A stretch of 64,000 nt of DNA from a virus (IMGVR_UViG_3300011904_000029:6312-70311), one strand, 5' to 3'; positions 7,890-63,964 are shown, counted from the first letter of the stretch. A program made the numbers and translations. Notes: generated from the sequence alone by a model not told the origin.

Positions 7890-8946
7890 CAAATTTGTTA
7901 CTACCTTATTAAAAGGCGGATAGGTCATTTCTGCCTATCTCTCTATGTCGCCATAGAGTTCAGACTATATCTTCTTGTGCGTGTGGTTATAAAAATTTAT
8001 TTTATATAATATGTATTTCTTTATTATGTAGTTCCATATGACATTCGAAGCATAATGTCTGTAAGTTTTCCTCTTTATTTGCTTCATTAATATCGTCAAA
8101 CTCCTCTATAGGAATTATGTGATGAACATTTAGTGCGTACTTTTCATAACTTTGAGTGTTGCAAATTTGACAAGTATAATTATCTTTTTTGACTTTTCTT
8201 TCTCGTATTCTTGACCACTTACTTCCATATCTATTTGGATTTTCTCTAGAAAACTGTCTATTTACACATCTATTTGAACAATATATTCTTTTATTTGACG
8301 GAACTGTAAAAGAAGGTCTTTCAAATTCCTTTTTGCAACAATAACATATTAATTTAATTGTATTTTGTTCGTTAGCAATATTGATACATTCTTGTGAGCA
8401 ATAGCTTATTTCTTTCCTATCTGCCCAAAACTCTTTATCACATACCTTACAGTTTAAATTATGTTTGTTTTTTCTACATAAATCAGAGCAATAATTACCG
8501 TCTTGTTGTATTCTCTGCTTAGCAATTTCAAACTCTTCTTTGCAATATTTACAATTAACTTTGACTTTTTTTGAGTTAATTGCTCCTAATTTAGCACTAC
8601 ACTTATGTGAGCATGTTCGTTTGGATCGCTCTCTTTTATTTTTTATATTTACTGTAAAAATGCTTTCACATATCTCACATTCCTTATCAACATATTCTTT
8701 TACTCTAGGTATTTATTATTCCTCCCTTGATCGCAACCACACGCACAAGTTTGGTTCGAGTTATAAAATTACTCTTATAACTACTTAGTCGTTGAACCTT
8801 CTACCTGGGAAACCAGGAAGCTCGGCTGCGAATTGCCCGCACTCTTGGGTTTTTAGGGTTCGCCGTGTCATTACTGCACGGTATCCTACCTTGAGATACT
8901 CGGGGTTCCCCGCAATTGACCAATTTTATACTCGGCTCATAAGTTA
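7890..8946 (-). mobile_element. group I intron interrupting nrdE, with embedded HNH endonuclease ORF
   Basis: exon 1 reads ...YVNQLG then stops; exon 2 resumes SRVAGIALYL (conserved YVNQxGxRxGAxAxYL block reconstituted); 5-prime exon end ACUCGGU pairs with internal guide GCCGAGU (U-G at splice site); intron ends with G; GC-rich structured core at 8760-8945. Confidence 0.7.
8002..8712 (-). CDS. intron-encoded HNH homing endonuclease with N-terminal zinc-ribbon repeats
   Basis: 236-codon open frame with C-terminal CQICN...HHIIP...NLQTLCFECHMELH HNH motif; preceded by GGGAGG RBS and TAATAA; no in-frame ATG/GTG/TTG near 5-prime end (first codon ATA). Confidence 0.65.
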   Translation of the reverse strand: MPRVKEYVDKECEICESIFTVNIKNKRERSKRTCSHKCSAKLGAINSKKVKVNCKYCKEEFEIAKQRIQQDGNYCSDLCRKNKHNLNCKVCDKEFWADRKEISYCSQECINIANEQNTIKLICYCCKKEFERPSFTVPSNKRIYCSNRCVNRQFSRENPNRYGSKWSRIRERKVKKDNYTCQICNTQSYEKYALNVHHIIPIEEFDDINEANKEENLQTLCFECHMELHNKEIHII

Positions 8947-9915
8947 ACCGAGTTGATTTACATATTCAGCTAGTACACTACTTAATCGTGATGGATGGAG
9001 AATTCCTGTTGCACGTCCTTTATATCCTCGAATCCATGAACCACTTGCGCGAAGGAACCCTAAATACTTCCCAATTCCTGCACCATTTTGACTAAATCTT
9101 GCTGTTTGTTCTAGGCTATTCATAATACTGATCAAATCATCATCAGGAGTAATAATGTGACATGATGACAATGTTCCGTGAGGCGCACCCGAACTCAGTA
9201 AAGTTGGTGTAGCTAATCCTACATAATGATTAGATAAAGCCCAATATGCTTCTTTTACTAACTCCATTCGCTTGGACTTCTTCTCATCTTTCATAAGATA
9301 GAGAGCAGAGGTTAAGAATCGCTCTTGTGGTAATTCTAAGACCTCGCCATTATAGCCCTTTTTAAGATAAGTATTGTTAAGCATGTAGAGTCCAGCATAG
9401 CTAAATTTTTTATCCTTTTCTTTTTCGATAAACTTTCCTGCTTTATTTAATTCTTTTTCAGTATATTGCTCCGTCAAGCTTTCATCATAAATGCCTTGCT
9501 CAACCATTTGAACAACAAAAGAGTAATAATCACCATAACCATTTTTATAATCAAAGCCCCTATTTTTAGACGCTTGCTTATACATCTTCCTCCTCAAAGT
9601 TGCTGCACTTAAATATGTGAAGTCTGGAGTTGACGGAGATATACAGTCATTTGAAAATCTAATAATCAAATCAAACAACTTGTCTGCCTCAAGTTTTTCC
9701 TTGGAATAAACGTAGTCGAATACATTTGCTCGGATTTTATTTAGAATATCTTTGTCGTATTCTTTCTCTGAATCTGTAATGATTTCATGGAAGAAGCGAT
9801 CAAACCTTTCTTCCATGAAATCTGATTCTTGAATGTGTGATTTTCTATCTTTAGTAATAACCGTCAAACAACTACACCCTTTCAGTCTTAAATTTGGTAA
9901 TAATTTATTTTGCAT
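8947..9915 (-). CDS. nrdE: ribonucleotide reductase class Ib alpha subunit, exon 1
   Basis: ATPTLLSSGAPHGTLSSCHII (radical-transfer Cys loop) and FTYLSAATLRRKMY; ends at 5-prime splice site. Confidence 0.85.
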
Positions 9916-10689: not shown

Positions 10690-10718
10690 ATTATAGTAAT
10701 TTATTTAATATATGTCAA
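10690..10718 (-). promoter_or_regulatory. sigma-A-type promoter TTGACA-17-TATAAT (conserved family)
   Basis: minus strand TTGACAtatattAAATAAATtacTATAAT; -35 10713-10718, -10 10690-10695. Confidence 0.6.
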
Positions 10719-10747
10719 TAGACTAAATAGAATATAATCAACCACTT

Positions 10748-15628: not shown

Positions 15629-15657
15629 ATTGTAATATTTTATTTAATATATGTCAA
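15629..15657 (-). promoter_or_regulatory. sigma-A-type promoter TTGACA-17-TACAAT (conserved family)
   Basis: minus strand TTGACAtatattAAATAAAAtatTACAAT; -35 15652-15657, -10 15629-15634. Confidence 0.55.
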
Positions 15658-15671
15658 TATGTATTTTCAAT

Positions 15672-28982: not shown

Positions 28983-29011
28983 ATAATACTAATTTATTTA
29001 ATATATGTCAA
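28983..29011 (-). promoter_or_regulatory. sigma-A-type promoter TTGACA-17-TATTAT (conserved family)
   Basis: minus strand TTGACAtatattAAATAAATtagTATTAT; -35 29006-29011, -10 28983-28988. Confidence 0.55.
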
Positions 29012-29015
29012 CCGT

Positions 29016-33430: not shown

Positions 33431-33812
33431 TTATTTTATCCTTTAGGCTTTTGGGCAATTTGCTATTAATTTTTCTTATTCGCTTATCTCTGTTCATCAT
33501 CCAATCTTGTATCTCCATAGTTTCAAAATAGTCATTGGCATTTGGTATGAAGCCCAAATCTTCTAATATATGTTGCTCTCCAACATATCTAGTAAAAACA
33601 GTCCTACCATCAGAATTTATAAAAGACTCTCCAAAAATTTTTGCGCATTCAAAAATACCTTCTGAATGATGTCTCATGGCTCGATGTCTCATATCTGGAA
33701 TCCAAGCTTTTGTTACATCAAACCAATTATGGATTTCAATATAGTCTTTTGGCTGGCCTCCAAATCTTCTTGCAGAACTTTTAGCATGAATTTCTGGGTG
33801 TGACATTATCAC
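33423..33812 (-). CDS. hypothetical protein
   Basis: 129-aa ORF. Confidence 0.4.
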   Translation of the reverse strand: MIMSHPEIHAKSSARRFGGQPKDYIEIHNWFDVTKAWIPDMRHRAMRHHSEGIFECAKIFGESFINSDGRTVFTRYVGEQHILEDLGFIPNANDYFETMEIQDWMMNRDKRIRKINSKLPKSLKDKINV

Positions 33813-34425
33813 TCATCTCCTTTTTTACTATTATATGCTTCCAAGTCATACCGTTTTTAATTTGATAAAGCATAGATGGGGTAATATCGTGCTTTTTTCT
33901 TATCTCTTTGCTGCTAGCTCCGTTGAATATCATATTTTTTATGTCTATAACTTGTTCAGTAGTTAGTCTTGCCGTTGGATTATTCTCGCCTCTCGCTTTT
34001 TTACTTAGCATTTCCCTGTTTTCTTTTGTGTGAGTTTTCCCGTAAAAACTGTTATTTTCCCCAGCTTGAGATTTTCTTATTTTCTCTTTTGATTCTTTTG
34101 AGTGCTTATAATCAAGTAGCGAATATGAATTTGGTGCTAAATTGTATTTGTTCTTTATTTTGTCAAGAAAGTATTGCTCTCTTTGACTAAGCTCATCTTT
34201 ATCTTTAACTTCTTCGAGTATTTCGAATGTAAATGATGATTCGCCAAATTGATCAAAGTCTTGTTGAAGCGATCCGTTATGATGAACCCCTTTCCTCAAT
34301 GCCCACCTATGAGTTAACCATCTTTCATATGTGTCTACCGTGCTTCCTATGTAAACCATGTTATTTTCTTTGCATATAATTTGATATATTCCTAGTTTTC
34401 TCTCTGCTTTTTTAGTGATTGGCAT
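33781..34425 (-). CDS. GIY-YIG homing endonuclease (I-TevI-like, with NUMOD-type linker repeats and C-terminal HTH)
   Basis: 214 aa; GIYQIICKENNMVYIGST...YERW GIY-YIG core; repeated KxxxGExNxxYGKTH modules. Confidence 0.75.
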   Translation of the reverse strand: MPITKKAERKLGIYQIICKENNMVYIGSTVDTYERWLTHRWALRKGVHHNGSLQQDFDQFGESSFTFEILEEVKDKDELSQREQYFLDKIKNKYNLAPNSYSLLDYKHSKESKEKIRKSQAGENNSFYGKTHTKENREMLSKKARGENNPTARLTTEQVIDIKNMIFNGASSKEIRKKHDITPSMLYQIKNGMTWKHIIVKKEMSDNVTPRNSC

Positions 34426-36313: not shown

Positions 36314-36963
36314 TTATAGATTTTCTCTTATATAAATCTTATAGTCTTCGTTAAGCCACCTATCTATTTTATTCAATCTATCAGCACTATAAAAATTTAA
36401 TTCTTTTGTATACCAGTCAGTATAGTCATATGCCCACTTTTTACTATTGCAATACCTGCATGAAGGTACACAATTACTTAAATCATTTAATCCGTCATTT
36501 ATAGCATGTTCCATATGTAGATGATGTCCTTGCTCTTGTTTCGCAGTCTCCTCCTCGACTCCACAATAAGCACACTTGTAGTCAAAATACGCCTTGCACC
36601 TTTCCCATTCTAAAGGTGAAATGTCATGCTGCTTATGCATGTGTTTATAATTATACTCCTTGAGTTTTTCTTTATTATCTCTTCTCCATCTTCTTTGATA
36701 TCCCCTCTCTCTCTTTGTTGTTTCCCATATTCTCTATTCTTTTTCTGCCAATCTGGACTAGACATATATCTATTAATCTTATTTTGTACAAGCTCTGCAT
36801 ATCTTTCAGGATTCTCCTCTTGCCATCTCATACTTCTCTCCACAGCACAGTCTTTACAATAGGGCTGATAGTAAATATACTCATCTCCAGACGATTTCTT
36901 TTTATTTTGAGAATAAAATGAGTCTAGGCTTTTTTCTAAGTTGCAATCTGAGCATACTTTCAC
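36314..36963 (-). CDS. HNH endonuclease, apparently split by a frameshift (two overlapping ORFs 36610..36963 and 36314..36640)
   Basis: downstream part has HNH core GHHLHMEH...NCVPSCRYCNSKK; upstream part has zinc finger CSDC...CKDC and W..N.E..Y repeat modules that continue in the other frame; frames switch inside (CT)5CCCC tract at 36702-36714. Confidence 0.5.
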
Positions 36964-37376: not shown

Positions 37377-37577
37377 TTAGTCTTCATCATAATTAAAAAA
37401 TTTATGTCCAGTATATCCTTTAAAAAATAGCTTCTTTTTAGGGTGGTCTGAGCACTCAGCATCAAAGAATATTCCGCCAGTTTTAATTAGCTCACAAGTC
37501 GAACACTCTGGCTCATGAACTTTTGTTCCGTTCATATAGTCCTCAGAACGCTCCATGATAATCTCTTCAATTGGCAA
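37377..37577 (-). CDS. hypothetical Cys-rich protein
   Basis: 66-aa ORF. Confidence 0.35.
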   Translation of the reverse strand: MPIEEIIMERSEDYMNGTKVHEPECSTCELIKTGGIFFDAECSDHPKKKLFFKGYTGHKFFNYDED

Positions 37578-40031: not shown

Positions 40032-40465
40032 TTTACCTATCTCCTTTTATCTCAGTTTTTCTCTTGCTTATTCCGTTTTTCACCGTCAATTTCTCATTAA
40101 AATAATTGTTTTATACATAAATTTATTTTCCTTTTGATTCTTGTAATAAATGATCTGTTAATAAATAAATAATTTCCTGTGCATTCTCAAGTATGTAATG
40201 TATATCACCTACAACTGCTTTGTTATTACCATCTTTATAATTTATTATTCCCCTATGACAACTATCAATAATTTTCAAAAGTTTATCTTGAACAATCACA
40301 TTATCAACCTCCTCCTTAACTATAAGTCACATTATTTTAATTGTCAACAATATTTTATTTTATATTTAATAGACGTTACAATGAGCACTCTAGGCATCTT
40401 TTACTTAATAATTTCTAAAAGATGCCTAATAAAATTCGATAGCAGGCAAGTTAATTTTCATGATT

Positions 40466-40798
40466 TTATGATGATGCTGCTTTAAGTGAATAAGAAGTGT
40501 TTAATGACACCCCTTCACTTTGTGGCAACTTAACTCCTAGTGTTTCCAATAAAAACTTTCTCATAATATTCTTTTCAGTCTTATGTAAATCAAATCCAGA
40601 ATCATCAAAACCATAATCAATCTCTTCTACTGGGTGCATTGTTATTTTATTTTGTATAAAATCTATATGTGTGTAGACATAATGCTTACTATCGACAAAT
40701 CCTCTAGTGATAAACTTAACTGGTATAATTGCAACTAACTCCTCTTCGTCCCATTCTTCAATGTAATCAAAAAATTCCTTCTCTAAGTTGATTTTCAA
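40466..40798 (-). CDS. hypothetical protein
   Basis: 110-aa ORF. Confidence 0.4.
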   Translation of the reverse strand: MKINLEKEFFDYIEEWDEEELVAIIPVKFITRGFVDSKHYVYTHIDFIQNKITMHPVEEIDYGFDDSGFDLHKTEKNIMRKFLLETLGVKLPQSEGVSLNTSYSLKAASS

Positions 40799-40957
40799 GA
40801 CAATATCCCCTTTTTCATTTATTTTTCTCTAGCCCATCAAACAGCAATTAAATTATTTCTCCTTTCTTTAATATCAAAAAACAGAACGAATGTTCCCTTT
40901 AATTATATGGCTTGTTCTGTTTTTATGCAACAGTCAAAGTTTTAATATTTTTATCTA

Positions 40958-40986
40958 TTGCCAACACTTACCAGAACAAATAAAAT
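40958..40986 (+). promoter_or_regulatory. plus-strand promoter TTGCCA-17-TAAAAT for XRE regulator
   Basis: -35 40958-40963, 17-nt spacer, -10 40981-40986, AAAGGAG RBS 41009-41015, ATG 41023. Confidence 0.5.
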
Positions 40987-41022
40987 TAAATTGTACGTCT
41001 AATAATAAAAAGGAGCTTTCCG

Positions 41023-41235
41023 ATGAAAAAGATAGAAGTCGGAAAGTGCTTACTTCCTGAACTTTTGTATGAGCGTAAAATGACACAAGTTGATCTTGAA
41101 ACTAAAACCGGAATTGATCGTAGACAAATTAATTCCTATATCAAAGGTCATAGGAGGATGTCTCTAGTTAATGCGAAAATTATTGCTACCGCATTAAAGT
41201 GTGTCATTGATGACTTATACGAGTGGAAAGGGTAA
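41023..41235 (+). CDS. XRE-family helix-turn-helix transcriptional regulator (YopS-like position)
   Basis: 70 aa; LLYERKMTQVDLETKTGIDRRQINSYIKGHRRMSLVNAKIIATAL is a classic Cro/CI-type HTH; divergent from the repressor-like operon. Confidence 0.65.
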   Translation: MKKIEVGKCLLPELLYERKMTQVDLETKTGIDRRQINSYIKGHRRMSLVNAKIIATALKCVIDDLYEWKG

Positions 41236-41466
41236 GTACGGTGGCTGAATGCCACTGGTTGCTAATCATCGAAAACGATGATTTAACACTACCTTTTTCC
41301 TATAAATTATACAACGCTTATATAGTATTTACTATATAAAATTCCAAATTATACTAGTTATTGTTCGTTGTACAATTTATACAAAAACCACTTCATATAT
41401 TTATTTAATTTTTATGTATAAATCTTAACCTATTCTATACAGTAGGTCAAGATTTAGAAGCATATA

Positions 41467-42462
41467 TTACCCATATAATTTTTCGACATTTTTTTCATTT
41501 ACAAACTGTTTTATATATGCCGTATTGTAATAAGTGTAGTCCTTCACAGTTATGGGGCTTAAATTGTACTTAATTGCTATCTTTTCAAATTCTTCATATT
41601 CGATTTCATTTGAGAACCCTTTTTCTTTTTTATCTTGAAGCAGCTTATATGCCATATAAATCATCCCTGATCTTGTCAATGACTTTGGTGTTATATCTTG
41701 AAAGTCGAAAAGTTCCGCAATCATTTTTATTCTATTCAATATTGTTATCTGACTAACTCTTTCTCCTTCCTTAACTCTGCCTCTTCTAACGTTTTTAATT
41801 ACATAATCACTCTCAACGATCTGAGAAGTTGAAAATCTCCCTTCTTCAACTGTTCCATTCCTGTTTAAATATTCATCATTACTATAATGAGCCTGTCTTA
41901 TTAACTCAATAACATCGTCTTCAAAATAGACAAATCTTTCTCCTTTTACATCATCATATAATCTCACTTTCCCAGTTTCTTCTTCTACATCAGCCCATCT
42001 TAAGTTTCTTAACTCACTGCTCTCTGTGCCATAAACTCCCTCAAATAATAAACGTAAAACCACTCTATCTTGAATATTTACTAAGTTGTTATATATATAA
42101 TCGAGTTCCTGTTTTGAAATAAACTGCTTAATGTCTTTATCAATAAACTGTCTATACCATTCTCTGTCTAAATTCTGCATAGGATGAATGTTGCTTGTTC
42201 GTAAATTATTCTTAATAGCCCACGCTATATATTGTGAAATAAAATTTCCTCTTGTTACTGCTACATTTAACGATTTGGGGTTTGAGTTAGCAATTACAGA
42301 ACCAATTTGATCTAGTGAAAAATCATACAAATCTTTCCCTAAAGGGACTTCATTCCCATAGGCATAATAAAAAATATACTCTACAACGTTTCTTGTCGTT
42401 TCACTATCATAGGCATCATTTAAAAATCTTTTTTTGATATCTTCATTATACATTTTATGCAT
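41467..42462 (-). CDS. tyrosine-recombinase-fold protein with degenerate active site (YopR-like repressor candidate)
   Basis: 331 aa; box I-like VLRLLFEGVYGTESSELRNLRWADV retained but box II reads SLTRSG (His replaced by Ser). Confidence 0.45.
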   Translation of the reverse strand: MHKMYNEDIKKRFLNDAYDSETTRNVVEYIFYYAYGNEVPLGKDLYDFSLDQIGSVIANSNPKSLNVAVTRGNFISQYIAWAIKNNLRTSNIHPMQNLDREWYRQFIDKDIKQFISKQELDYIYNNLVNIQDRVVLRLLFEGVYGTESSELRNLRWADVEEETGKVRLYDDVKGERFVYFEDDVIELIRQAHYSNDEYLNRNGTVEEGRFSTSQIVESDYVIKNVRRGRVKEGERVSQITILNRIKMIAELFDFQDITPKSLTRSGMIYMAYKLLQDKKEKGFSNEIEYEEFEKIAIKYNLSPITVKDYTYYNTAYIKQFVNEKNVEKLYG

Positions 42463-42463
42463 A

Positions 42464-43828
42464 CTAAGATTTCACCATACCCTTTACGTCTATTTCTTTA
42501 AAGTAATTTGCAATATTTTTTCTTAATTGATTTGTGTCTCTTTCAATATTACCTTTCTCATTTAACACACCAATATCTTTCCATAATGGATTGTCTTTTG
42601 AGAAATCAATGCTCTTTACAACCTTTCTGATTTCTTTTGCTTTTATATCAGATTCATACATACGTCTTGCTATGACAATATATCCCACAAACACGTTATT
42701 GTCATTAATCAATGAATTCTTTCTTGTTTCTTCAACTTTAAAAATAAACTCGTCTTGATAAGACCCAATTAGCATATTGAAAAATTCAACAAGAAAATCT
42801 CCTACATCCGCTGCGTCTGCACGGGTATTCATGATAAATTCTTGATCTATTGTATCTGCCAACACGTTATACGAAACTAATTCGTTTGCAATTGTTCTTA
42901 CTCTATTCGTTTGAGAAATCCTACCCTCTAGATCGCTTTCCGTCTTAAGCTGCTGAACAACACTGTCCGAGTACCTTTTCGATTCCCACTCTTGAACTCT
43001 TACGGTAGAGATAGGGGTAGCTTTTGCTACCTGAGCCTGTTCAGCTCTAAATTTCTTTTTTGTAAAATTACTTATGACAACAATGAAGTCATGCTGAATA
43101 TCTTTGTTGTTCATCAAAGCGTTTCTAATGGCAGTAATTCTGTGAAACCCATCACCAATCGCAAGTTCAGTTCCTTTATTTATCTGTAATGTCTGATGCG
43201 TGGGATCATACTCTAATTCATTTCCGGTTTCACTACTTCTTACTAACGCATTCCAAACTAATGGAGGAGTTGTTTTTGCTAATGTTCCATTGATGAGATG
43301 TTGCTCAATTTCTCTTACATTTGTCATCATCAACTTTGGCTTTTTTCTTACTGTCCCATCTTTGCCCTTCACTAATACAGCCTCTCTTTGTAATTCGTAA
43401 TCGTAAATTAATAATTGATTTTCAACTAACTCATTAATAGTATGCATATCGATCCTTACAGAAAATACGCCATCTCCCTCTACTCTAGCGTTTTTCAAAA
43501 CTATAGGAAAGTCAACTTCTTCACGATAGACAGATGCATCATATGTTTTTGCTATATCTTTTTCAACATCAGTAAAATAATCACTTGGATTTATATTATA
43601 AGTAACGCCGCATTTTGCGTAAATCTGCTCAGTAATTAAATATAACTCCCTAATATCTAAATTAGATAGCGATTCTTTCGCATTACTGATCCATGTTTGA
43701 ACTTCTCCAGCTAATATATTGTGTTTGCTTACTAAGTGTAATTTAATATCATTAATAATTTTCTTATCTCTTTTAATAGCTTGGATAGCTTGAGTAAGAT
43801 TTTCTTCTAATAACTCTCTATCATTCAT
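42464..43828 (-). CDS. DGQHR-domain (DndB/ParB-like nuclease superfamily) protein
   Basis: 454 aa; motif ELAIGDGFHRITAIRNAL corresponds to the DGQHR signature of DndB-like proteins. Confidence 0.5.
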   Translation of the reverse strand: MNDRELLEENLTQAIQAIKRDKKIINDIKLHLVSKHNILAGEVQTWISNAKESLSNLDIRELYLITEQIYAKCGVTYNINPSDYFTDVEKDIAKTYDASVYREEVDFPIVLKNARVEGDGVFSVRIDMHTINELVENQLLIYDYELQREAVLVKGKDGTVRKKPKLMMTNVREIEQHLINGTLAKTTPPLVWNALVRSSETGNELEYDPTHQTLQINKGTELAIGDGFHRITAIRNALMNNKDIQHDFIVVISNFTKKKFRAEQAQVAKATPISTVRVQEWESKRYSDSVVQQLKTESDLEGRISQTNRVRTIANELVSYNVLADTIDQEFIMNTRADAADVGDFLVEFFNMLIGSYQDEFIFKVEETRKNSLINDNNVFVGYIVIARRMYESDIKAKEIRKVVKSIDFSKDNPLWKDIGVLNEKGNIERDTNQLRKNIANYFKEIDVKGMVKS

Positions 43829-43897
43829 CTATTTCACCTCATTTATATATTACATTAAGCAATGACACCTGTAAAACAGTTATTAATATAAATTTAT

Positions 43898-45400
43898 TTA
43901 CCCAATTTGATCATAGTCTTCTTTATACATCCATCTGTATCCACCAGCTGATTTTCGGCGACCTTGGCAAACTAGTGATATTCCATTAGCACTTTTCATA
44001 TTTAAATGCTTTCTTGCTTTTCCCATACTTTCCCATGATTTGATAAATCTTCCATCATGTGTCAGCTGAACAATTTCTTTTGATTTTATTAGCGCCCCTG
44101 TATTTTTCTTTGAATCATAATCACACCAACCGATTTTGGCTCCCTGTTTTAAGAATTTAATTGCTGTATTTCTTCCTATATTAAGTGTTTTAGATATCTT
44201 TAATGAGCACCTTACTCCCATATTCCATAAATCACTTGCATCTTTTACTAATGTTGAACAAGCAAATTCGTGACACTTTAACCACTCAATATTGGAAAAA
44301 TTGATTAGATTTATAATATCGCTATTTAGAATACCTACTTTTATCCAGTCTATATTTGAATATCTACAATCCAATACAATATAATTAGCAATTCCGTTTT
44401 CTTTAGCTAATTCTTTTTTTAATTTGTCGTTCTTTTTAACTTCAATTAGGCTACCTCCTTTAAATCCTTCTTCATAATGCTGTAACCCATGTGTCTCTAT
44501 TATCATATTTAAATCAGGAATATAAAAGTCATACCTCTTATATCCAACAATATCCTCATCTTTAAGTTTTACATTTTTTGACCAACTAAATATTTTCTGT
44601 GTTTCAAATTCCATGTTTAATTGCATGAATATGCCAATAACGAATTTTTCTGGATAACTAAATCCATCAGAACATCTTGAGCAGCTAAATCCTTGATTGA
44701 CAACATTATCTATAAATTTCATTTCTGAGTTACTACATTTTGGACAAGTAAACCTTAGTTTTCTTTGACTCCCTTTAGATACTTCATATCCTATGCGGGG
44801 ATCAGATAAAAGACTCGCTACATCAGGATTAGTCGCCCATAGGCAATTCGTATGATTTACTTTTTTTCCAGTACAATATGGGCAATTATTACCATTAACT
44901 TTATTAGCTATTGTCATGGAATATTCACTTTTGCATAATAAACAATTCCACTTATACTTGATTCCAGAAGACTTAAATATCTTGTCTGGCGTACAATCAT
45001 TTTTATTACTAAACTCAAGCAATATATAGTTTTTATTATTTTCTTTTACCCAATATTCTAAAGTGTGTTCATACGACATAATTTCTCTTTTAGTTATTTC
45101 GGCTTTTATACTACCACATCTTCTACACCTATCAATTCCATCTCCAGCTTGTCGACTTGAGATAATTTTAGAATAACTTTGATTCTTAATCACCTCATTA
45201 CAGTCATCACAAATCTTAGTAACCTTTACATTAGAATTTTTAGGTAGATCGCTGACGCTTATTAGTATTTTTGTATTAGGTGGAACTGTTAGTCTTCCTT
45301 GATTATTTTTACGTCTTGGTATGTGATACCCCAATAATTCATAATATTTATCAGTTTTTAATCCACATCTTACCCATATTTCTTTCTCTAATATAGCCAA
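43898..45400 (-). CDS. zinc-ribbon / PD-(D/E)XK-like homing endonuclease paralog (family 3 of 3) with C-terminal NUMOD1-like DNA-binding tail
   Basis: 500 aa; CxxC...GH repeats; YDFYIPDLNMIIETHGLQHYEE...KENGIANYIVLD nuclease block; C-terminal ...SAGGYRWMYKEDY. Confidence 0.55.
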   Translation of the reverse strand: MAILEKEIWVRCGLKTDKYYELLGYHIPRRKNNQGRLTVPPNTKILISVSDLPKNSNVKVTKICDDCNEVIKNQSYSKIISSRQAGDGIDRCRRCGSIKAEITKREIMSYEHTLEYWVKENNKNYILLEFSNKNDCTPDKIFKSSGIKYKWNCLLCKSEYSMTIANKVNGNNCPYCTGKKVNHTNCLWATNPDVASLLSDPRIGYEVSKGSQRKLRFTCPKCSNSEMKFIDNVVNQGFSCSRCSDGFSYPEKFVIGIFMQLNMEFETQKIFSWSKNVKLKDEDIVGYKRYDFYIPDLNMIIETHGLQHYEEGFKGGSLIEVKKNDKLKKELAKENGIANYIVLDCRYSNIDWIKVGILNSDIINLINFSNIEWLKCHEFACSTLVKDASDLWNMGVRCSLKISKTLNIGRNTAIKFLKQGAKIGWCDYDSKKNTGALIKSKEIVQLTHDGRFIKSWESMGKARKHLNMKSANGISLVCQGRRKSAGGYRWMYKEDYDQIG

Positions 45401-45424
45401 TATTACACCCCCTGTAAAACTTTT

Positions 45425-46465
45425 TCAGTCGCCTAATTGTGTCATTTCTTTTAGTTTTAAATTTAACAATAATATTTGATCCTTAGTAAGAGATGAAATG
45501 CCTTTCAACAACTCTTCATGAGAAACTTTTTTAAATAATTGATCATCAATATCACCCTTGCTAGACACAGCTCCCAATACACCCAAATCACGTTCGCCAA
45601 TATATATCAGCAGATTCTCCATATTCTTATGTCCAGAAGCCTTTTTTGCTTGTAGTAAGTCATTTGTCAAGCGATACTGGAACGTTACTCCGGCTTTACG
45701 AAATGAATGGAAGACCACATTTCTCTTATCTTCAAATTTTAATTGCCTTTTTATATAATTCATCATACTTTGAATTGAGGTATCACTTATATCAAATACT
45801 TTATTTGTACCTGATTCATTTTTTATTTGAACTAATTCTTCATAAAACTCTTTAGAGATTCTTAAATTCCTCTCTTCATTCCCCTTATCAACTGCCCTAA
45901 TCTCAACCTCATCATCATGTAAAATAAAATCATCCCAAGTCAAATTTAATAATGCACTTTTACGTAGGCATGTATCCATTGCAGTAAGGATTAGATAATA
46001 TTTTGTTAGACGCTTTCTACCTCTAGGTTGATTTTTTACTAGTTCTGCTGCCTGAAAAACCTCCTCAACTGTTAACACTCCATGATGATTTTTTCCTTCC
46101 TTAAGCCTATCTGCCTCATCAAATGCTGCCAGATTTTCTATATAACCTCTTCTATATAGCTGTCCATAAAATTGATTAACCGTTGAAATTTTCCTGTTTA
46201 TAGATTTATTTAATAATCCTCTGTCATTCTTTAGATAAATTTGAAACTTTACTATATCATCATCATTTAATTTAACATCATTTTTATTTAAAAATTCAAT
46301 TTCTTTTTTAGCTTTAAACTTAAAAAAATCTCTAATGTCGCTATCATAAGCTTCTCTTGTTTTTAGACTCTCACTTCTCATTGTTTTCTTTTCTAAGAAT
46401 AATATGATCTGTTCGTATATTTCTGATCGATTAATTTCAACGACCTCAGCCAACATTATAACCAC
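45425..46465 (-). CDS. tyrosine recombinase / integrase-family protein (catalytic residues intact)
   Basis: 346 aa; box I AMDTCLRKSALLNLTWDDF, box II VVFHSFRKAGVTFQYRL, GHKNMENLLIYIGE with candidate Tyr nucleophile. Confidence 0.65.
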   Translation of the reverse strand: MVIMLAEVVEINRSEIYEQIILFLEKKTMRSESLKTREAYDSDIRDFFKFKAKKEIEFLNKNDVKLNDDDIVKFQIYLKNDRGLLNKSINRKISTVNQFYGQLYRRGYIENLAAFDEADRLKEGKNHHGVLTVEEVFQAAELVKNQPRGRKRLTKYYLILTAMDTCLRKSALLNLTWDDFILHDDEVEIRAVDKGNEERNLRISKEFYEELVQIKNESGTNKVFDISDTSIQSMMNYIKRQLKFEDKRNVVFHSFRKAGVTFQYRLTNDLLQAKKASGHKNMENLLIYIGERDLGVLGAVSSKGDIDDQLFKKVSHEELLKGISSLTKDQILLLNLKLKEMTQLGD

Positions 46466-46682
46466 TCCTTAATAATTTAATTCCTTCTCAAGAATCATTA
46501 CAATATTCTTTGCTTCCCTATAAAGCCTTTGTTTGTCCTTTTTAGTCCATTTCTTAAGGTTTCTCTTTATGTATCCAAACGTATTTGACGACACTTCTCC
46601 CATCCTCTCCATTCATTATATATTATTATGTTCAAAAGTACAAATTATAACTATTATATAAATTTATTTATCTTTAGTTCTT

Positions 46683-46710
46683 ATTATAGCACAAATTGTT
46701 CTTAATTCAA
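46683..46710 (-). promoter_or_regulatory. promoter TTGAAT-16-TGcTATAAT (extended -10) upstream of recombinase operon
   Basis: minus strand TTGAATtaagaacaatttgtgcTATAAT; -35 46705-46710, -10 46683-46688. Confidence 0.45.
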
Positions 46711-46741
46711 TGCAAAAATGCCAGTTTTTTAATTTATTAAA

Positions 46742-46767
46742 TAAAAAAGACCTGTATTAAACAGATC
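46742..46767 (-). terminator. intrinsic terminator (7-bp stem with one G-U, U-tract)
   Basis: minus strand GAUCUGUuuaauACAGGUC followed by UUUUUUAUUU. Confidence 0.45.
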
Positions 46768-47007
46768 CATTACTATGCATTAAAAGAGAGTTTTTATTTA
46801 GTATTCTAAGTATTCAATGTCAATTGAAATTAGATCCCCCCCTAAAATCCTCAATTCGATAGCAATTGTCTCCATCATAACTAATTACAATTCCTTTCGT
46901 CTCCCACCACATAGCATCATATGGATACATTACTTTAACTTTTTCGCCTTTTGCCAACATATTTTCAATACTCCCTCCAATAAATGCATGATTTTATTAT
47001 TGATTTG

Positions 47008-47340
47008 TTAAAGCTCTTTTATTATCTTCTCGATTGTTTTATACGGTATTGGATATAATGCAGTTAAAGTATTTTTAAAAATATCTTTATTCGAATCATA
47101 GATCTTTTTTATTCCTGACTCCGGAGAACAAGGACATTTTACTCTGCTGCAATATCTAATATCGTTAACAAACTTAGTGACTTCAATAATCATACTGTTC
47201 GTCACTTGTTTGGCTCGCTCAACGTCAAATTTTGAATAGTGTGTAGCATCAGTAGCTGCAACTAAATCATTTTCATAATAACCAATTAGCTGTCTCAATA
47301 AATTCACATATTCTGTTTTATCATTACTCATTATCTTCAT
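47008..47340 (-). CDS. hypothetical protein
   Basis: 110-aa ORF. Confidence 0.4.
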   Translation of the reverse strand: MKIMSNDKTEYVNLLRQLIGYYENDLVAATDATHYSKFDVERAKQVTNSMIIEVTKFVNDIRYCSRVKCPCSPESGIKKIYDSNKDIFKNTLTALYPIPYKTIEKIIKEL

Positions 47341-50953: not shown

Positions 50954-51307
50954 CTAAGACAATTTCACATCAATAATTTTTTCTATTGAAATCTTCTCAG
51001 ATTTACCATTCAATACTATATGCAATTTCTTTTCAATATGGTCATACTTGTTAATATGGCACTTCTTCTCAGTAATGCTTCCCAAATGATAAACGGACAA
51101 GTATACAGGAACATAGTCTTCAATAGCAATTGTCAACAAATCATTTATCTCCATCCATTTTTGCTCATCTAAAATTGGCTTATTAATCAGCTTTTTATTA
51201 GAATTATGGGAAATGATTTTCTCTGTATGTTCAGGCAACATCATCCTACTTGATTCCCACCTTAGATTTTGATTTTTTGTTAATTTATTGATTTTCATTG
51301 CAATCAT
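50954..51307 (-). CDS. YolD-like protein (accessory to Y-family polymerase)
   Basis: 117-aa ORF immediately downstream of and co-oriented with the Y-family polymerase gene. Confidence 0.45.
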   Translation of the reverse strand: MIAMKINKLTKNQNLRWESSRMMLPEHTEKIISHNSNKKLINKPILDEQKWMEINDLLTIAIEDYVPVYLSVYHLGSITEKKCHINKYDHIEKKLHIVLNGKSEKISIEKIIDVKLS

Positions 51308-51310
51308 CCT

Positions 51311-52546
51311 TTATTTATAGTGACCACCAATTTTTGAAGCTCTTTCGGATGCTTGACCTGCTTTAGTTAATGACGATGCCCTATATAATGCTGTACGTCC
51401 GTATTTATCCCAAATTTCATCTAGTGCTGTATTCAGTTGCTCCCTATATGAATAGTTATCAAATAAATCAATCTGGTAGTTGTCTGCTGGCTGTAAGTTA
51501 GAAATACTCACACCTAAACTGCGTATTGGCTCTTTATTCCAAAACTTTAACAGTAATTTATAAGCTGCATTAAAAATATCTAGATCATAATTTGTTGGCA
51601 CTGATAAAGTAACTTGTCGATTAAATCCGGTTGGAAAATCAAAATCCGCACCTCTAACGCCACAAGAAATTGTTGTTCCCATGTATCCTTTCTTTCTACA
51701 TCTTCTAGCTACTTCAGTACATAGTTCTAATAGTACAACCTTAATTTCATCTAAATCCATATAATCTCTGGGCAAAGTCATATGATGGCCAACTGCTTTT
51801 TGTTGATTGTGCGTCTTAACAGTGACTGGCGAATAGTCGATACCGTTGGCTGTCTGCCATAATACCTCTCCATTAATGCCCCATCTTTTCTTCAGCAATT
51901 CAACTGGAAATTTAGCCAGTCCTCCAATTGTAAAGATGCCCATCCCGTTTAAATTACGTTTCATTCGTTTGCCTACACCAAACATTTTTTCTACTGGCAG
52001 CTTCCATAACTGGTCAATGTTGTTTTGATCTAGACGGAATATGCCTTCTTTGTTCTTTTTAGCAAAGTTATCACAAGCCATTTTTGCTAATATCTTATTT
52101 GATCCTATACCTACTCTGGCATATACTCCAGTATCATATAATATTTTTTCCTGAACTTTTTTAGCTATTTCAAACTGATTACCAAATAACTTTTGACTAC
52201 CAGTTACATCCATAAATTGTTCATCAATACTAAACTGCTCAACTAAATCAGTAAACTCTTCCATAATTTTGCTAATTTGCATAGAAACATTAATATATAA
52301 CTGCATATGAGGTTTAACTACCTCAACATTAGGACATTTCAATAAAGCAGATCCCAATGTTTCGGCTGTTGTGATGCCAAATTTCTTTGCAATTGGACAT
52401 GCAGCTAGGACTATGCCACTTCTACGCTCAGGGTCTCCCGCAACAATAACAGGCTTATCCTTTAATGAGTTATTATTAACTTTTTCAACTGAAGCATAGA
52501 ATGATTGCATATCAACTAAGAAAATCACTTTTTCTGCCAATGACAA
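51311..52546 (-). CDS. Y-family translesion DNA polymerase (UmuC/UvrX-like)
   Basis: 411 aa; N-terminal VIFLVDMQSFYASVE, FSIDEQFMDVTG, GVGKRMKRNLNGMGIFTIG motifs. Confidence 0.85.
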   Translation of the reverse strand: MSLAEKVIFLVDMQSFYASVEKVNNNSLKDKPVIVAGDPERRSGIVLAACPIAKKFGITTAETLGSALLKCPNVEVVKPHMQLYINVSMQISKIMEEFTDLVEQFSIDEQFMDVTGSQKLFGNQFEIAKKVQEKILYDTGVYARVGIGSNKILAKMACDNFAKKNKEGIFRLDQNNIDQLWKLPVEKMFGVGKRMKRNLNGMGIFTIGGLAKFPVELLKKRWGINGEVLWQTANGIDYSPVTVKTHNQQKAVGHHMTLPRDYMDLDEIKVVLLELCTEVARRCRKKGYMGTTISCGVRGADFDFPTGFNRQVTLSVPTNYDLDIFNAAYKLLLKFWNKEPIRSLGVSISNLQPADNYQIDLFDNYSYREQLNTALDEIWDKYGRTALYRASSLTKAGQASERASKIGGHYK

Positions 52547-52562
52547 TCACCTCAATTAATAA

Positions 52563-52574
52563 GAACGTTCGTTC
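52563..52574 (-). promoter_or_regulatory. LexA (Cheo) box GAACN4GTTC downstream of polY promoter
   Basis: GAACGTTCGTTC exactly fits GAAC-N4-GTTC; second near-match AAACACTTGTTC at 52590-52601 inside spacer of TTGCAT-18-TATAAT promoter (52581-52610). Confidence 0.55.
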
Positions 52575-60573: not shown

Positions 60574-60644
60574 CCAACTTACTCCTCAGCGATATTTTTC
60601 ACTTTCTGTTATGTAACTTAAATTAATTATACTATTTTATTTCA

Positions 60645-60923
60645 TTAATGTAAAGTGTTTTCTTGATTATCTTCCCAAATACATCCTTCAACTGTCCAAC
60701 AATTTTTTATTAATGTATACTTAATATCTTTAACCTGGATTACTTCAATAGTACATGATGCAGCTACTTCATAGCCATTGTAAATAATTAATTCTTGATT
60801 CTCATACACTCTGTACTCTTCTCCAGTGATTAAAGTCTGTATGACATTCTCCGGTAGTTCATTCCAGTTATGAATCAATCTTGGCAAGTCTTTGACCTTT
60901 CCAGTTAGATGGTAAACTAACAT
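60645..60923 (-). CDS. hypothetical protein
   Basis: 92-aa ORF. Confidence 0.35.
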   Translation of the reverse strand: MLVYHLTGKVKDLPRLIHNWNELPENVIQTLITGEEYRVYENQELIIYNGYEVAASCTIEVIQVKDIKYTLIKNCWTVEGCIWEDNQENTLH

Positions 60924-61006: not shown

Positions 61007-63964
61007 TTAAACTACCTTCTGAGTATTCCATTGAATGTAGCTTTTGCCTTCTTCATCTTTTTCTTTAATTAGAAGCATGTTTAAAATATCAAAATCAACT
61101 CCAAACCTTTCTAAGATTTCATCATCATCTATGGAATCATTTTTCATAAAGTTGTTTAGTTTCTCTTTATTCATAATCAACTTAAGTAAATTAGACTCAA
61201 TACTGTTTCTAATTGTTAAAAAGTGTATTTCTTTTTGCTCTGTAGAGGTATATCTTATAAACCTTGCAAAAAACTGATGCATTGCTGCAAAGTTCCATTG
61301 TAGCTCAATAAGTAATACACGGTTCACAAAATCAATATTCATGCTGCTTGATAAAGATTGTTGAGTACAAATAAGTATTCCATTTTTTGTTTCTTTTAGT
61401 TTCTTTATTATCTCTTTTCTCTTGCTCAATGTTGTGCTGTCACCAGTAATTATAAACAATGGCCTTTCAGGGAATTTGTTTTTAATATAACTTGCATACA
61501 TATTAACTGTTTTAATGTGAGTACACCCTATTACAACATGCTCGTTATCCCATTCATGAAGCATATTAACCATTTCAATTGCTTTGGAAGGTGTTTGACT
61601 TGAATAGTAATCTTTAAAGATATTAGGTGTTACACATGCTTTTAACAGGCTGTTAAGTTGTTGTATAATCCTCAACAAAGCATCTTTTCTGCTGTTCCCT
61701 GTTGATCTGTACATATGAGTGAGTTTATAGAATTCTTCAATTACAATTCTATAAAGTTCTTTTTCAGCATGGTTAAACTCTGTTGTTTTCTGTATGATTT
61801 TATAAATATTCTTGCCGCTAACCTCTTCAAATGTTCGAGTTATCATTGTTTTATTAATTAGTTCGCTTAATTCTTCACTGTTATATATATCTTGATTCAT
61901 TTTCCCTACACCAAATACTGTTGCTTTCTCCGGTGAAAATGATCTTTTAAAATGTGTATGGCCTTTCTTATATGCAGGAAACGGCCACATATAAAATTTA
62001 TTAAATTCCTCCTTAATCTCTTTTGTCTTTTTATCCTCAATAAATATAATGTCATTCTTTGACAGCATATTAACTGAATTATTATAGAGCAATTCAAATG
62101 CTGTAAACGATTCTGGAATGTTATTTCTGGTACTTGTAGCACTCATAAGCAATTTAAACTTAACTCTTCTAAAACAGTTTAAAATGGCCTTTGTACGTTT
62201 AGATGATGGATTACAAATACCATCTGCTTCATCTAGTACCAACATAACTTTTTGACTTTGCATTTTTACAAACTTTTTAATTTGCTTTTGATATTTAGTT
62301 ATCATTCCAAAAGTCATAATTACTATTTGTCCATGTTTAATATTGTCAATATCTTTAAGTGATTTGATCCTAATAAAATCTATATCGTATGCCTTTAGAA
62401 TTTCGTCCCAATTGTTATTAATTGCAATTGCAGGTGCAATAAGGAATATATTTCTAATGCTGTTATGCTGCTTTCTATATAACATCTGTGCAATGGCCGA
62501 TAAACTTTTCCCTGCTCCTGTTCCCCATTGCAGATAACCATAATTTTTAGATAGCATTTTTATTGTATCTTCTTTTTGAATATTATTTAGTTTAATCTCC
62601 TGGCTATTTTCTTTATCATAAATCACCAAGTTTTCAAGAAAAGATTTTATTTTTTCGTCTTGTTTTATATTTTTAAATGAGCAATTCTGCTTCTGATATT
62701 CCTTGCTTTTCTTTTCAAATAATTTTATATACTTATGATCTTGAAAAGGATAGTTATCATTAATAATCATGTCATTAAAGCTTATCTCTTTGACTCCATT
62801 ATATGATTTTAAAAATTTTCTCTCCTTTGTGCTGTATGCTTTTAGCTTCAGACCATAGCGATTTTTTACAAGTCTTGTTATATGAACTTCTGGTTTTTTA
62901 TGCTGCTTTTTTAAAGTGTTTTTAAGATACCGAATAACTTTGTTTTTTGTTATCCTTACTTTCTGCCATTCCTCATAAGTCATTCCCTCTGGCTGCTCTT
63001 GTGTATAATACCTATTCAAATAGGCTTCACATTTAGAATAGTATTTATTGATTTTCGGATTACTCTTGATATCAAATAACAACTTATTTACTTTATAATG
63101 AAATTCATTTTCATCTTTATTTTGTGACATTGTTTCAAGAATAATTTTATTTTTAACTTGCTGCTTTTCATCAAGAATTGGTTTTATGTAATTGTTATAA
63201 ATATAATTTGATTCTGATTCAATTATTTCTAGCGATTTTATAGTATTGCTTTTATATGGCCTCTCTGTTACATGTTCGCTCTTTTTCTGGAAAAACATAA
63301 TCTTTGTTTCAAAATTATTGACCCCGACATGATTAAATGAGTCTGAAGGCAAAGTGAATTGTGACACAAAATTGAACATCTTATTAATCTCTGTTATCAT
63401 TCCACCGTCTACAAAGTCATCGCTTAGAAAGGATCTAGGTACAATTAATGCCATGATCCCACCAGGTTTTAATACTTCATATGATTTAATACAATAATAC
63501 AGTTGACTTAAATATTCATCATTTCCAACATCCCATTTTAAATTAAATGGTGGATTCCCTAAAACAATGTCAAACTGGATATCAGTTTTATAATTTCTAA
63601 TATCTTGATTTGTTATATTTGCATGTGGATATAAGTATTTTGAAACTTTATAAGCCTTTATATCTAATTCATTGCCATATACATTTAACTCGTTTGGAAG
63701 ATAGTTAAAAAAGTTACCCATCCCACTTGTTAAATCAATAATTAAATCATGCTCATTAGGTTTTAAACAGTCTATAAGAAATTTAGAAATTGTATGAGAT
63801 GTAAAGAATTGACCATTTTCTAATTCCTTTTTGGCTTCTGTATAATCATGAAAAGATGAATAGTCTTTAAAATCTAACCCATGCAGCCCACCATCACCAG
63901 TATAAGAATTAAATATATCCTCTTTTGAAATATTGTGTTGATCACATAAGTTATTATCAATCAA
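61007..63964 (-). CDS. N6-adenine DNA methyltransferase fused to SF2 (DEAD-box-type) helicase
   Basis: 985 aa; N-terminal amino-MTase motifs FFTSHTISKFLID, DLTSGMGNFF (motif I) and NPPFN (motif IV); C-terminal helicase motifs GTGAGKS (Walker A), LVLDEAD (motif II), LMSATS (motif III). Confidence 0.75.
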   Translation of the reverse strand: MIDNNLCDQHNISKEDIFNSYTGDGGLHGLDFKDYSSFHDYTEAKKELENGQFFTSHTISKFLIDCLKPNEHDLIIDLTSGMGNFFNYLPNELNVYGNELDIKAYKVSKYLYPHANITNQDIRNYKTDIQFDIVLGNPPFNLKWDVGNDEYLSQLYYCIKSYEVLKPGGIMALIVPRSFLSDDFVDGGMITEINKMFNFVSQFTLPSDSFNHVGVNNFETKIMFFQKKSEHVTERPYKSNTIKSLEIIESESNYIYNNYIKPILDEKQQVKNKIILETMSQNKDENEFHYKVNKLLFDIKSNPKINKYYSKCEAYLNRYYTQEQPEGMTYEEWQKVRITKNKVIRYLKNTLKKQHKKPEVHITRLVKNRYGLKLKAYSTKERKFLKSYNGVKEISFNDMIINDNYPFQDHKYIKLFEKKSKEYQKQNCSFKNIKQDEKIKSFLENLVIYDKENSQEIKLNNIQKEDTIKMLSKNYGYLQWGTGAGKSLSAIAQMLYRKQHNSIRNIFLIAPAIAINNNWDEILKAYDIDFIRIKSLKDIDNIKHGQIVIMTFGMITKYQKQIKKFVKMQSQKVMLVLDEADGICNPSSKRTKAILNCFRRVKFKLLMSATSTRNNIPESFTAFELLYNNSVNMLSKNDIIFIEDKKTKEIKEEFNKFYMWPFPAYKKGHTHFKRSFSPEKATVFGVGKMNQDIYNSEELSELINKTMITRTFEEVSGKNIYKIIQKTTEFNHAEKELYRIVIEEFYKLTHMYRSTGNSRKDALLRIIQQLNSLLKACVTPNIFKDYYSSQTPSKAIEMVNMLHEWDNEHVVIGCTHIKTVNMYASYIKNKFPERPLFIITGDSTTLSKRKEIIKKLKETKNGILICTQQSLSSSMNIDFVNRVLLIELQWNFAAMHQFFARFIRYTSTEQKEIHFLTIRNSIESNLLKLIMNKEKLNNFMKNDSIDDDEILERFGVDFDILNMLLIKEKDEEGKSYIQWNTQKVV

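Follow-up and report, generated by a model that had tools for sequence, protein, structure and literature searches.

Does the region at positions 40958–46710 of the viral sequence IMGVR_UViG_3300011904_000029:6312-70311 control lysogeny, and is it built like the lysogeny module of the phage SPbeta? The stretch examined, hereafter the window, is 64 kb long and part of a 164-kb contig (DAMDKB010000005.1, GCA_032100165.1). It is AT-rich (~31% GC), and its minus strand carries almost all genes. We estimate at roughly 80% the probability that the region serves lysogeny control in a temperate phage or prophage of the SPbeta type from a Bacillaceae host. No feature of the locus is categorically new; the SPbeta cassette is already known, and it is found here in an uncultured relative with three modest twists, namely no arbitrium in the window, a candidate antirepressor that is not YopT-like, and a recurrent endonuclease gene in the operon spacer. 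The overall interpretation of the initial annotation, a lysogeny-control-like module, is supported but was incomplete: it had overlooked the LexA-controlled candidate antirepressor, the seeming lack of arbitrium and the fact that the endonuclease recurs in other lineages.

Gene order and the predicted repressor core

The five open reading frames (ORFs) called in the initial annotation are all present, with these coordinates and assignments:

41023–41235, plus strand: 70-amino-acid (aa) XRE/Cro-C1 helix-turn-helix (HTH) protein, predicted YopS ortholog (Pfam HTH_26/HTH_3, similarity to YopS)
41467–42462, minus strand: integrase-fold protein of the SroF/MrpR/YopR family, 331 aa, catalytically degenerate, predicted repressor (Pfam, PHROGs and PDB matches, residue mapping)
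42464–43828, minus strand: SroE/YopQ-like DndB-family protein, 454 aa, DGFHR motif at residues 226–230 (Pfam, PHROGs)
43898–45400, minus strand: free-standing gene of a homing-endonuclease family, 500 aa, own ribosome-binding site (RBS), TTG start (Pfam, PHROGs, family alignment)
45425–46465, minus strand: SroD/YopP-like tyrosine recombinase, 346 aa, catalytic hexad intact (Pfam, XerD/XerH profile alignment)

The synteny with the yopS and yopR-yopQ-yopP region of SPbeta, proposed in the initial annotation, was checked against NC_001884 and has the same order and orientation. That record reads yopK(aimR)-yopL(aimP)-yopM-yopN-yopO-yopP-yopQ-yopR, while yopS lies on the other strand and meets yopR tail-to-tail, and the P-Q-R-S part of the window is identical to it in both respects. 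The XRE gene, introduced as divergent from the operon, is therefore convergent with it, tail-to-tail like yopS with yopR, and is divergent only from a 110-aa ORF at 40466–40798. The 331-aa (MrpR-like) gene is last in the operon, directly after the DndB-like (SroE) and recombinase-like (SroD) genes. The same three genes are contiguous in Psychrobacillus phage Perkons (ORF64–66) and Geobacillus virus E3 (gp148–146), and the same module occurs at eight further loci; megablast of the 5.9-kb region against phage records gave no match. Loci are numbered below only where needed (L001, SPbeta NC_001884; L002, Perkons; L006, S. fordii; L008 and L011, Cytobacillus solani chromosomes).

The 331-aa protein matches both MrpR models of Pfam far above the cut-off of 27 bits (MrpR_N_CB, 5.7e-25, 88.2 bits; MrpR_C_cat, 5.1e-23, 82.3 bits) and phrog_5830 of PHROGs at 1e-76, and NCBI names its close homologs 'phage lytic cycle repressor MrpR family protein'. 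Among solved structures it matches PDB 9rd5 (1.7e-33), 8a0a and 8bj6, with E-values of 1e-33 to 1e-30 over residues 1–330. The latter two are SPbeta YopR/MrpR, and the match in 9rd5 is to a 325-residue chain, presumably phi3T SroF. Identity is 77% to the S. fordii copy, 44% to that of Perkons and 39% to that of E3. For pattern design an alignment of 25 MrpR sequences was too diverse, and one of 11 worked. An identical MrpR-like protein is found on a 384-kb metagenome contig (JGI), which is larger than a phage genome and suggests an integrated prophage.

Members of the MrpR/YopR/SroF family have been shown experimentally to be repressors, to have lost recombinase activity and to bind DNA (PMC10516654; bioRxiv 10.1101/2025.11.27.690993). 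MrpR/YopR, the master repressor of SPbeta, is an inactive recombinase fold that binds a repeated element, SPBRE, in about ten promoter regions (PMC10516654); phi3T SroF is a monomer that encircles DNA at a 26-bp AT-rich box (bioRxiv 10.1101/2025.11.27.690993). Long AT-rich boxes are bound in this monomeric form in both SPbeta and phi3T. The gene set sroDEF serves as a signature of SPbeta-like phages. In the SPBc2 record NC_001884 (L001, 6001–6978), YopR has Glu at position 136 where the PDB sequences have Gly, and this Glu is the heat-sensitive c2 allele G136E (PMC10516654).

The catalytic positions of the 331-aa protein, mapped through Table 3 of PMC10516654 (MrpR versus Cre, XerH and lambda Int), are occupied as follows:

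Arg I position: V143/Y144
Acidic position: E150, the only catalytic residue retained
Lys column: V172, with K173 adjacent
His II position: K260
Arg II position: T263, with R264 adjacent as in MrpR
His/Trp III position: I304 or P, depending on the alignment
Tyr position (MrpR Y304): F320

The degenerate box II that had been read as SLTRSG is thus the string K260-S-L-T263-R264-S-G, and Phe at the position of MrpR Y304 is common to the window protein, Perkons, E3 and S. fordii. By this mapping the protein is at least as catalytically degenerate as MrpR, and therefore does not retain the complete catalytic set that the initial annotation had named as evidence against its view. That view, of a DNA-binding repressor rather than an enzyme, agrees with the membership and residue losses found here, and by homology we assign the protein as a predicted MrpR/SroF-family repressor.

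Its upstream neighbour, the 454-aa protein, was also recognized correctly as DGQHR/DndB-like: it matches Pfam DndB at 6.6e-11 and phrog_5732 at 6e-101, and its DGQHR-type motif reads DGFHR, with D226, G227, H229 and R230 invariant in the alignment. It is 28% identical to YopQ and 48–62% identical to closer relatives, and is the predicted SroE/YopQ partner; SroE/YopQ is reported to be a further, second repressor on which lysogeny depends. Pattern scans of genome and viral collections with the DndB-like protein alone gave no match.

The 346-aa protein has a Phage_integrase domain and an N-terminal SAM-like domain (SAM_1) in Pfam, is 28% identical to YopP and 59% to Perkons ORF64, and is predicted to be the SroD/YopP recombinase-like protein. 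The initial call of an intact tyrosine recombinase is borne out by R168, K194, H253, R256, H279 and Y288 on the catalytic hexad, placed by aligning a four-protein YopP-like profile with XerD and XerH; the auxiliary acidic position, A171, is the sole departure. The R-K-H-R-H-Y hexad is retained in eight of nine lineages at 31–68% identity (the window, its homologs in L002, L003, L006, L009, L010, L012 and L013, and SPbeta YopP), the exception being SPbeta YopP, which has Lys at Arg II. YopP is the only one studied. A catalytic role of SroD-like proteins may have been overlooked, and one rather unlikely possibility is that the window protein is a working recombinase, not only an auxiliary repressor. 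In an account from Brady et al. of 2023, SroD is reportedly an auxiliary repressor, and SroA–C are said to tie the module to arbitrium.

With YopS the XRE protein shares 43% identity along all 70 aa (E 8e-17), and with the S. fordii copy 83%; it is a YopS ortholog by homology.

Candidate control sites, a proposed SOS arm and arbitrium

Between the YopS-like gene and the 110-aa ORF lies the layout that in SPbeta precedes yopT. Its parts in the window are these:

40902–40930, minus strand: promoter-like site TTGCAT-17-TATAAT of the 110-aa ORF, back-to-back with the XRE site; both hexamers conserved in S. fordii
40884–40895, no strand: perfect Cheo/LexA box GAACGAATGTTC, 6 nt downstream of the −10; conserved in S. 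fordii
40466–40798, minus strand: acidic ORF, 110 aa, isoelectric point (pI) 4.9, candidate antirepressor under SOS control, in the position of Sar/YopT

Where 0.36 would be expected, the window has three copies of the pattern GAAC-N4-GTTC. SPbeta has TATAAT and then GAACGCACGTTC before yopT (PyopT), the same layout as in the window. A perfect box between yopS and a small acidic ORF (68–110 aa, pI 4.4–4.9) was found at six of the seven loci with a YopS ortholog, and the arrangement YopS, box, acidic ORF is common to the window, SPbeta and four further relatives. In phi3T, SroF is inactivated by the small LexA-controlled antirepressor Sar; in SPbeta, Sar is YopT, encoded one ORF downstream of sroF, and yopT/sar has been validated experimentally (bioRxiv 10.1101/2025.11.27.690993). 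The box position, the acidic pI and the conserved layout thus make the 110-aa ORF a positional, regulatory and charge analogue of Sar.

The ORF is nearly an orphan: a word-indexed homolog search returned only itself, and an exhaustive HMMER search returned three proteins. It is 50% identical to its S. fordii copy, with 77% for the neighbouring MrpR-like protein. An AlphaFold 2 (AF2) model from four sequences predicts a beta-sheet and one helix (predicted local distance difference test, pLDDT, 79.7; the single-sequence model, at 37.6, was unusable) and had no fold match among solved structures. We considered the ORF as a member of the Sar family and rejected this, as homology is not detectable and the predicted fold is not YopT-like. 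The ORF is therefore not filed in that family, and that it works like Sar is what we infer by analogy, at about even odds.

A second perfect LexA box, at 52563–52574, lies just upstream of genes for a Y-family polymerase (51311–52546) and YolD (50954–51307), a pair that is a typical SOS target and suggests an SOS-controlled translesion module in the phage. The third perfect Cheo/LexA box is at 37517–37528.

Five near-identical 27-nt elements (3438–3464, 10694–10720, 15633–15659, 28987–29013 and 60630–60656), with a weaker one at 56045, read TTGACA-TATATTAAATAAATTAC-TATAAT on the minus strand, which is the consensus of a sigma-A promoter around a conserved spacer. They lie in intergenic gaps, 32–63 nt upstream of minus-strand ORFs, and are candidate repressor-controlled promoters. 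A position weight matrix (PWM) of the element has six matches of at least 14 bits, against 0.1 in shuffles. The core of this AT-rich element is ATTAAATAAATTA; with one mismatch allowed, this 13-mer has 15 matches in place of 2.4 expected, all 15 on the same strand and most of them intergenic. One copy stands before the operon itself:

46730–46742, minus strand: 13-nt core copy ATTTAATAAATTA (1 mismatch), a candidate operator for autoregulation that lies ~20 nt ahead of the operon's promoter-like site

It is placed between a terminator-like hairpin (46768–46748) and the operon promoter-like site (46710–46683). S. fordii, where SroF is 77% identical, has six core matches on the forward and none on the reverse strand (0.8 expected), including one at the corresponding position, ~290 bp before the recombinase gene. 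The PWM detected no strong copy in the 21 kb of the S. fordii locus; since the copies in the corresponding part of the window are weak too, that comparison is uninformative, and the shorter core motif was used instead. The core motif is absent from SPbeta, L012 and L015. SPBRE of SPbeta differs in sequence from the window element, as expected for phage-specific pairs of repressor and operator. The element is a candidate for the cognate operator of the 331-aa protein, an assignment on which we are evenly divided.

The remaining signals of the module are consensus matches in an AT-rich stretch, together with hairpins:

40958–40986, plus strand: promoter-like site of the XRE gene, TTGCCA-17-TAAAAT (consensus; position conserved in S. 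fordii)
46683–46710, minus strand: operon promoter-like site, TTGAAT-16-TATAAT with TG extension (10/12 consensus match)
46748–46768, minus strand: terminator-like hairpin and T-run closing the upstream transcription unit before the module, the sole such site in 40300–47100
43847–43875, minus strand: internal promoter-like site TTTACA-17-TAATAT before the DndB-like and MrpR-like genes (consensus)
41236–41466, no strand: spacer on which the MrpR-like and YopS-like genes converge, strongly structured with several hairpins (z = −7.6)
40319–40347, minus strand: strong promoter-like site TTGACA-17-TATAGT before the downstream gene block starting with a 58-aa ORF (consensus)

The XRE promoter of the initial annotation does exist as a site, but it draws its support solely from its conserved position in S. 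fordii. A promoter-like site comparable to the internal one is found in the spacer between the SroD- and SroE-like genes (D–E spacer) of S. fordii, L013, L012, Perkons and E3, which fits the reported transcription of yopQ and yopR in SPbeta lysogens. The hairpins of the convergent spacer are likely to act in bidirectional termination, and one core-motif-like copy lies inside it, near 41396–41422. A hairpin with a 12-bp stem (40390–40426) precedes the TTGACA-17-TATAGT site. An Rfam scan of the whole window gave no match, and hence no known regulatory RNA.

The arbitrium genes, which head this region in SPbeta, were not found in the window. AimR models (NCBIfam, Pfam) had no match among the large ORFs of the window, and tblastn with AimR from SPbeta, L009 and L013 had none in its 64 kb. 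In L009 and L013, AimR is in its canonical place, 2–2.6 kb upstream of the recombinase gene; at the remaining loci that have all three genes of the module, the 3.5–7.5 kb fetched upstream showed no AimR. The AimR-less window, L010 and L012 have in common a small ORF directly before the recombinase gene:

46469–46612, minus strand: basic ORF, 47 aa, immediately upstream of the recombinase gene; conserved in the AimR-less L010 (49% identity) and L012

The genes upstream of the operon encode small ORFs, a YpsA/SLOG protein, an Ant/Rha protein, DNA ligase, YolD and the Y-family polymerase. Work on the SPbeta repressor system has dealt almost entirely with two phages of Bacillus subtilis, and in these the system is wired to arbitrium. 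The same repressor core with a LexA-controlled small acidic gene is found in the window and in Siminovitchia, Fictibacillus, Psychrobacillus and Geobacillus relatives, and since no AimR was detected in the examined sequence of those relatives, the repression module seems to be older and to stand on its own, arbitrium having been joined to it in some lineages.

A gene of a homing-endonuclease family in the operon spacer

The 500-aa gene between the DndB-like and recombinase genes has DUF4379 treble-clef Zn fingers in Pfam and a weak C-terminal I-HmuI NUMOD-like match (E 0.011), and it matches PHROGs endonuclease families 4538, 559 and 9084, the last two annotated as HNH/homing endonuclease. Among 17 members, including an in-window protein at 930–2576, three CxxC-CxxC ribbons and a core of D291, E302, H304, Q307, H308 and K328 are invariant or nearly so (all core residues but H304 are strictly invariant), and the D291–K328 core is suggestive of a PD-(D/E)xK-like site. 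The family has more than 850 matches, mostly in Bacillaceae, and many of its members have NUMOD1 and I-HmuI-like modules, with strong matches (2e-17 and 5e-12). No curated nuclease domain in Pfam matches the central part of the 500-aa protein, and the PDB sequence search matched its Zn-ribbon region only. From these relationships the gene is predicted to be a selfish, free-standing member of a homing-endonuclease family.

The initial annotation had the gene inserted between the DGQHR and recombinase genes, as a paralog. The insertion is supported, as comparison of loci with and without the gene shows an empty site in S. fordii, the closest relative. The paralogy is distant: the 548-aa DUF4379/CapR protein at 930–2576, next to thyA, is 24–27% identical to the 500-aa protein. 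Other endonuclease-type genes in the window, at 33781–34425 and 36314–36640, encode a GIY-YIG and NUMOD3 protein and a small ORF with a weak HNH match.

The cassette lies 24 nt after the recombinase stop codon and has a short repeat at both junctions:

45411–45420, minus strand: left copy of the 10-nt junction repeat GTTTTACAGG
43868–43877, minus strand: right copy of the 10-nt junction repeat GTTTTACAGG, which preserves the −35 of the internal TTTACA-17-TAATAT site

The S. fordii-type empty site reads …CTGATAAAGTTTTACAACAGTCAATAAATAATG…. The D–E spacer is occupied in the window, L009 and L010 and empty in S. fordii, L012, L013, Perkons, E3 and SPbeta. The endonuclease of L009 belongs to the same family and has an equivalent insertion point and the same MAILEK N-terminus. 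That of L010 lies 168 nt after the stop codon, downstream of a promoter-like site, and overlaps the DndB-like start by 11 nt; this different insertion point indicates at least two independent insertions. The three spacer endonucleases are ~42–48% identical to one another, similar to the divergence of their neighbours.

Having entered the spacer of a master-repressor operon at least twice, the endonuclease might be no casual passenger, combining homing drive with a weapon of superinfection exclusion; we regard this as a tentative and rather unlikely idea. As the spacer endonucleases are co-oriented with the operon, they would be made from the lysogeny transcript. If the idea is right, the enzyme would cut the endonuclease-free repressor operons of incoming related phages, and homing would drag the linked immunity genes along. 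The pair of occupied and empty sites is natural material for testing homing into an immunity region.

Rival readings and relation to known systems

If the module is a lysogeny-control cassette, it could work as follows. In a lysogen, the operon promoter (46710–46683) and the internal promoter (43875–43847) would express SroD, SroE and SroF. SroF, with SroE, would occupy the AT-rich element in at least five consensus promoters of the early region and beside its own promoter, and this occupancy would keep lytic genes off. Upon DNA damage, LexA would leave the box at 40884–40895, and the 110-aa acidic protein would be made and inactivate SroF. The arbitrium gating of the SPbeta switch would not be encoded in the window, which has the conserved 47-aa ORF upstream of the recombinase gene instead. 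The endonuclease gene would have landed in the D–E spacer, ahead of the internal promoter, leaving the repressor genes intact.

Several points weigh against this account. All function is assigned by homology, at 28–43% identity to characterised SPbeta proteins. Promoter-like matches in the module occur at chance density (39 found, 37.1 expected), and the 27-nt element could equally be a homogenised-spacer family of strong early promoters. The 64-kb window shows no integrase or attachment (att) site, which leaves relatives as the only basis for a temperate lifestyle; Perkons, the closest cultured phage, is temperate and integrates via a serine integrase, not via its two recombinase-fold proteins. 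Finally, 64 kb of the 164-kb contig were examined, so aimR could lie elsewhere, and 'arbitrium-less' describes the window only.

The two recombinase-fold proteins could instead be working integrases or resolvases, with the cassette serving integration and excision or DNA resolution. Homologs are so annotated in Perkons, E3 and many genomes. A 2026 paper calls Perkons ORF64 and ORF66 'bona fide integrases', discussing these YopP/YopR homologs without mention of MrpR (PMC13245101), and the full hexad of the 346-aa protein, so widely kept, suggests selection on catalysis. However, the 331-aa protein is without Arg I, His II, His/Trp III and the Tyr of the MrpR Y304 position, MrpR itself was shown to be a non-catalytic repressor (PMC10516654), integration in SPbeta and Perkons is performed by a serine recombinase, and no att-like repeats flank the module. 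We consider this improbable for the cassette, though it could be partly true for the SroD-like protein alone.

Alternatively, the module might be an inactive relic in a virulent or defective phage, conserved by descent and without a role in lysis-lysogeny control. The window's lack of a visible arbitrium gene, integrase or att site is compatible with that, as are the endonuclease gene inside the operon and the decayed C. solani loci, which have a partial recombinase gene and no YopS. Against decay in the window, the four module ORFs are all full-length with family-invariant residues intact, the LexA box and promoter hexamers are conserved against the 72%-identical S. fordii relative, the internal promoter-like site was spared by the endonuclease insertion, and the identical MrpR-like protein on the 384-kb contig points to an integrated prophage; we judge a relic quite improbable. 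The DndB match and DGFHR motif could also mark a phosphorothioation or anti-phage defence island with accessory neighbours, but the match to the NCBIfam DndB equivalog TIGR03233 reaches 19.4 of the required 328 bits and that to the DGQHR domain model 18.5 of 58.85, no dndA/C/D/E-like gene is among the neighbours scanned, and the SPbeta homolog YopQ/SroE is reported as a repressor, so this explanation is hardly credible. A lysogeny-control cassette remains the preferred reading.

The module is mosaic. Its recombinase is closest to that of a Robertmurraya siralis prophage (L013, 68% aa identity) and only 42% identical to that of S. fordii, its DndB-like protein is closest to those of L009 and L013 (62%), and for its MrpR-like and YopS proteins S. 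fordii has the nearest copies (77% and 83%). A nucleotide block 72% identical to S. fordii (L006 9523–12342) starts within the DndB-like gene at 42940 and runs to 40098. The repressor, YopS, the candidate antirepressor and the next ORF (58 aa) thus travel together, consistent with the reported co-evolution of SroF–Sar pairs. The early region of the window is also SPbeta-type, with ThyA, a split large subunit and a small subunit of ribonucleotide reductase (RNR), Dcm, PolA, RecJ, primase, a DnaB-like helicase, ligase and the Y-family polymerase.

In the C. solani loci (L008 and L011) the module is apparently decayed: both still have intact genes for the DndB-like and MrpR-like proteins, a YopS ortholog was not found, the recombinase gene is a partial remnant in L008, none was detected in L011, and ABC transporter and SpoOE-like host genes are close by. 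In the window, the RNR large subunit is split between 6489–7928 and 8944–9915, the halves abutting at model positions 1–74/75–523 (barrel domain). The gap of ~1 kb (7929–8943) has no long ORF and may be an ORF-less intron; Rfam gave no match at the gathering threshold. A 985-aa ORF (61007–63964) weakly matches SNF2-type helicases and a defence-associated DNA methyltransferase (MADS2, DISARM DrmD models), all far below the cut-offs.

Among known systems, the sro module of SPbeta and phi3T (sroD-sroE-sroF = yopP-yopQ-yopR) is like the window in gene order, orientations and convergent YopS, in the MrpR/SroF fold with its catalytic loss, and in the DndB-like partner directly upstream with the recombinase-like gene before that. 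In both, a LexA box closely follows the −10 of the small acidic ORF that comes next and is divergent, and a repeated cis-element is scattered over early-gene promoter regions. Unlike SPbeta, the window is without aimR/aimP/aimX and sroA–C homologs, and the 47-aa ORF precedes its recombinase gene. Protein identities are only 28–43%, the 331-aa protein has Phe at MrpR Y304, the recombinase keeps the Arg II that is Lys in YopP, and the candidate antirepressor, at 110 aa, has a predicted beta-sheet-plus-helix fold that is not that of YopT. The cis-element differs from SPBRE in sequence and lies within the promoter spacer, not near the RBS, and an endonuclease gene interrupts the operon.

Like free-standing phage homing endonucleases (T4 seg/mob, and the NUMOD enzymes I-TevI and I-HmuI), the 500-aa gene is intergenic, co-oriented and equipped with its own RBS, and its family shows presence/absence polymorphism at one site and has NUMOD1 and I-HmuI-like modules. 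Unlike them, its core matches no curated nuclease domain and is preceded by three treble-clef Zn ribbons (DUF4379), its target is a spacer inside a master-repressor operon, and its family is not known to cleave DNA.

The closest cultured phages, Perkons (ORF64–66) and E3 (gp148–146), have the three-gene block and Phe at MrpR Y304, and as in the window no AimR was detected, here in the ~3.5 kb fetched upstream. They differ from it in a D–E spacer without an endonuclease and in having no YopS ortholog beside the MrpR-like gene (tblastn). The literature describes their genes as integrases rather than as parts of a repressor module. Assignment to MrpR would account for some of the puzzle of 'multiple integrases' in Perkons and makes the 'extra integrases' of such large Bacillaceae siphoviruses candidates for re-annotation.

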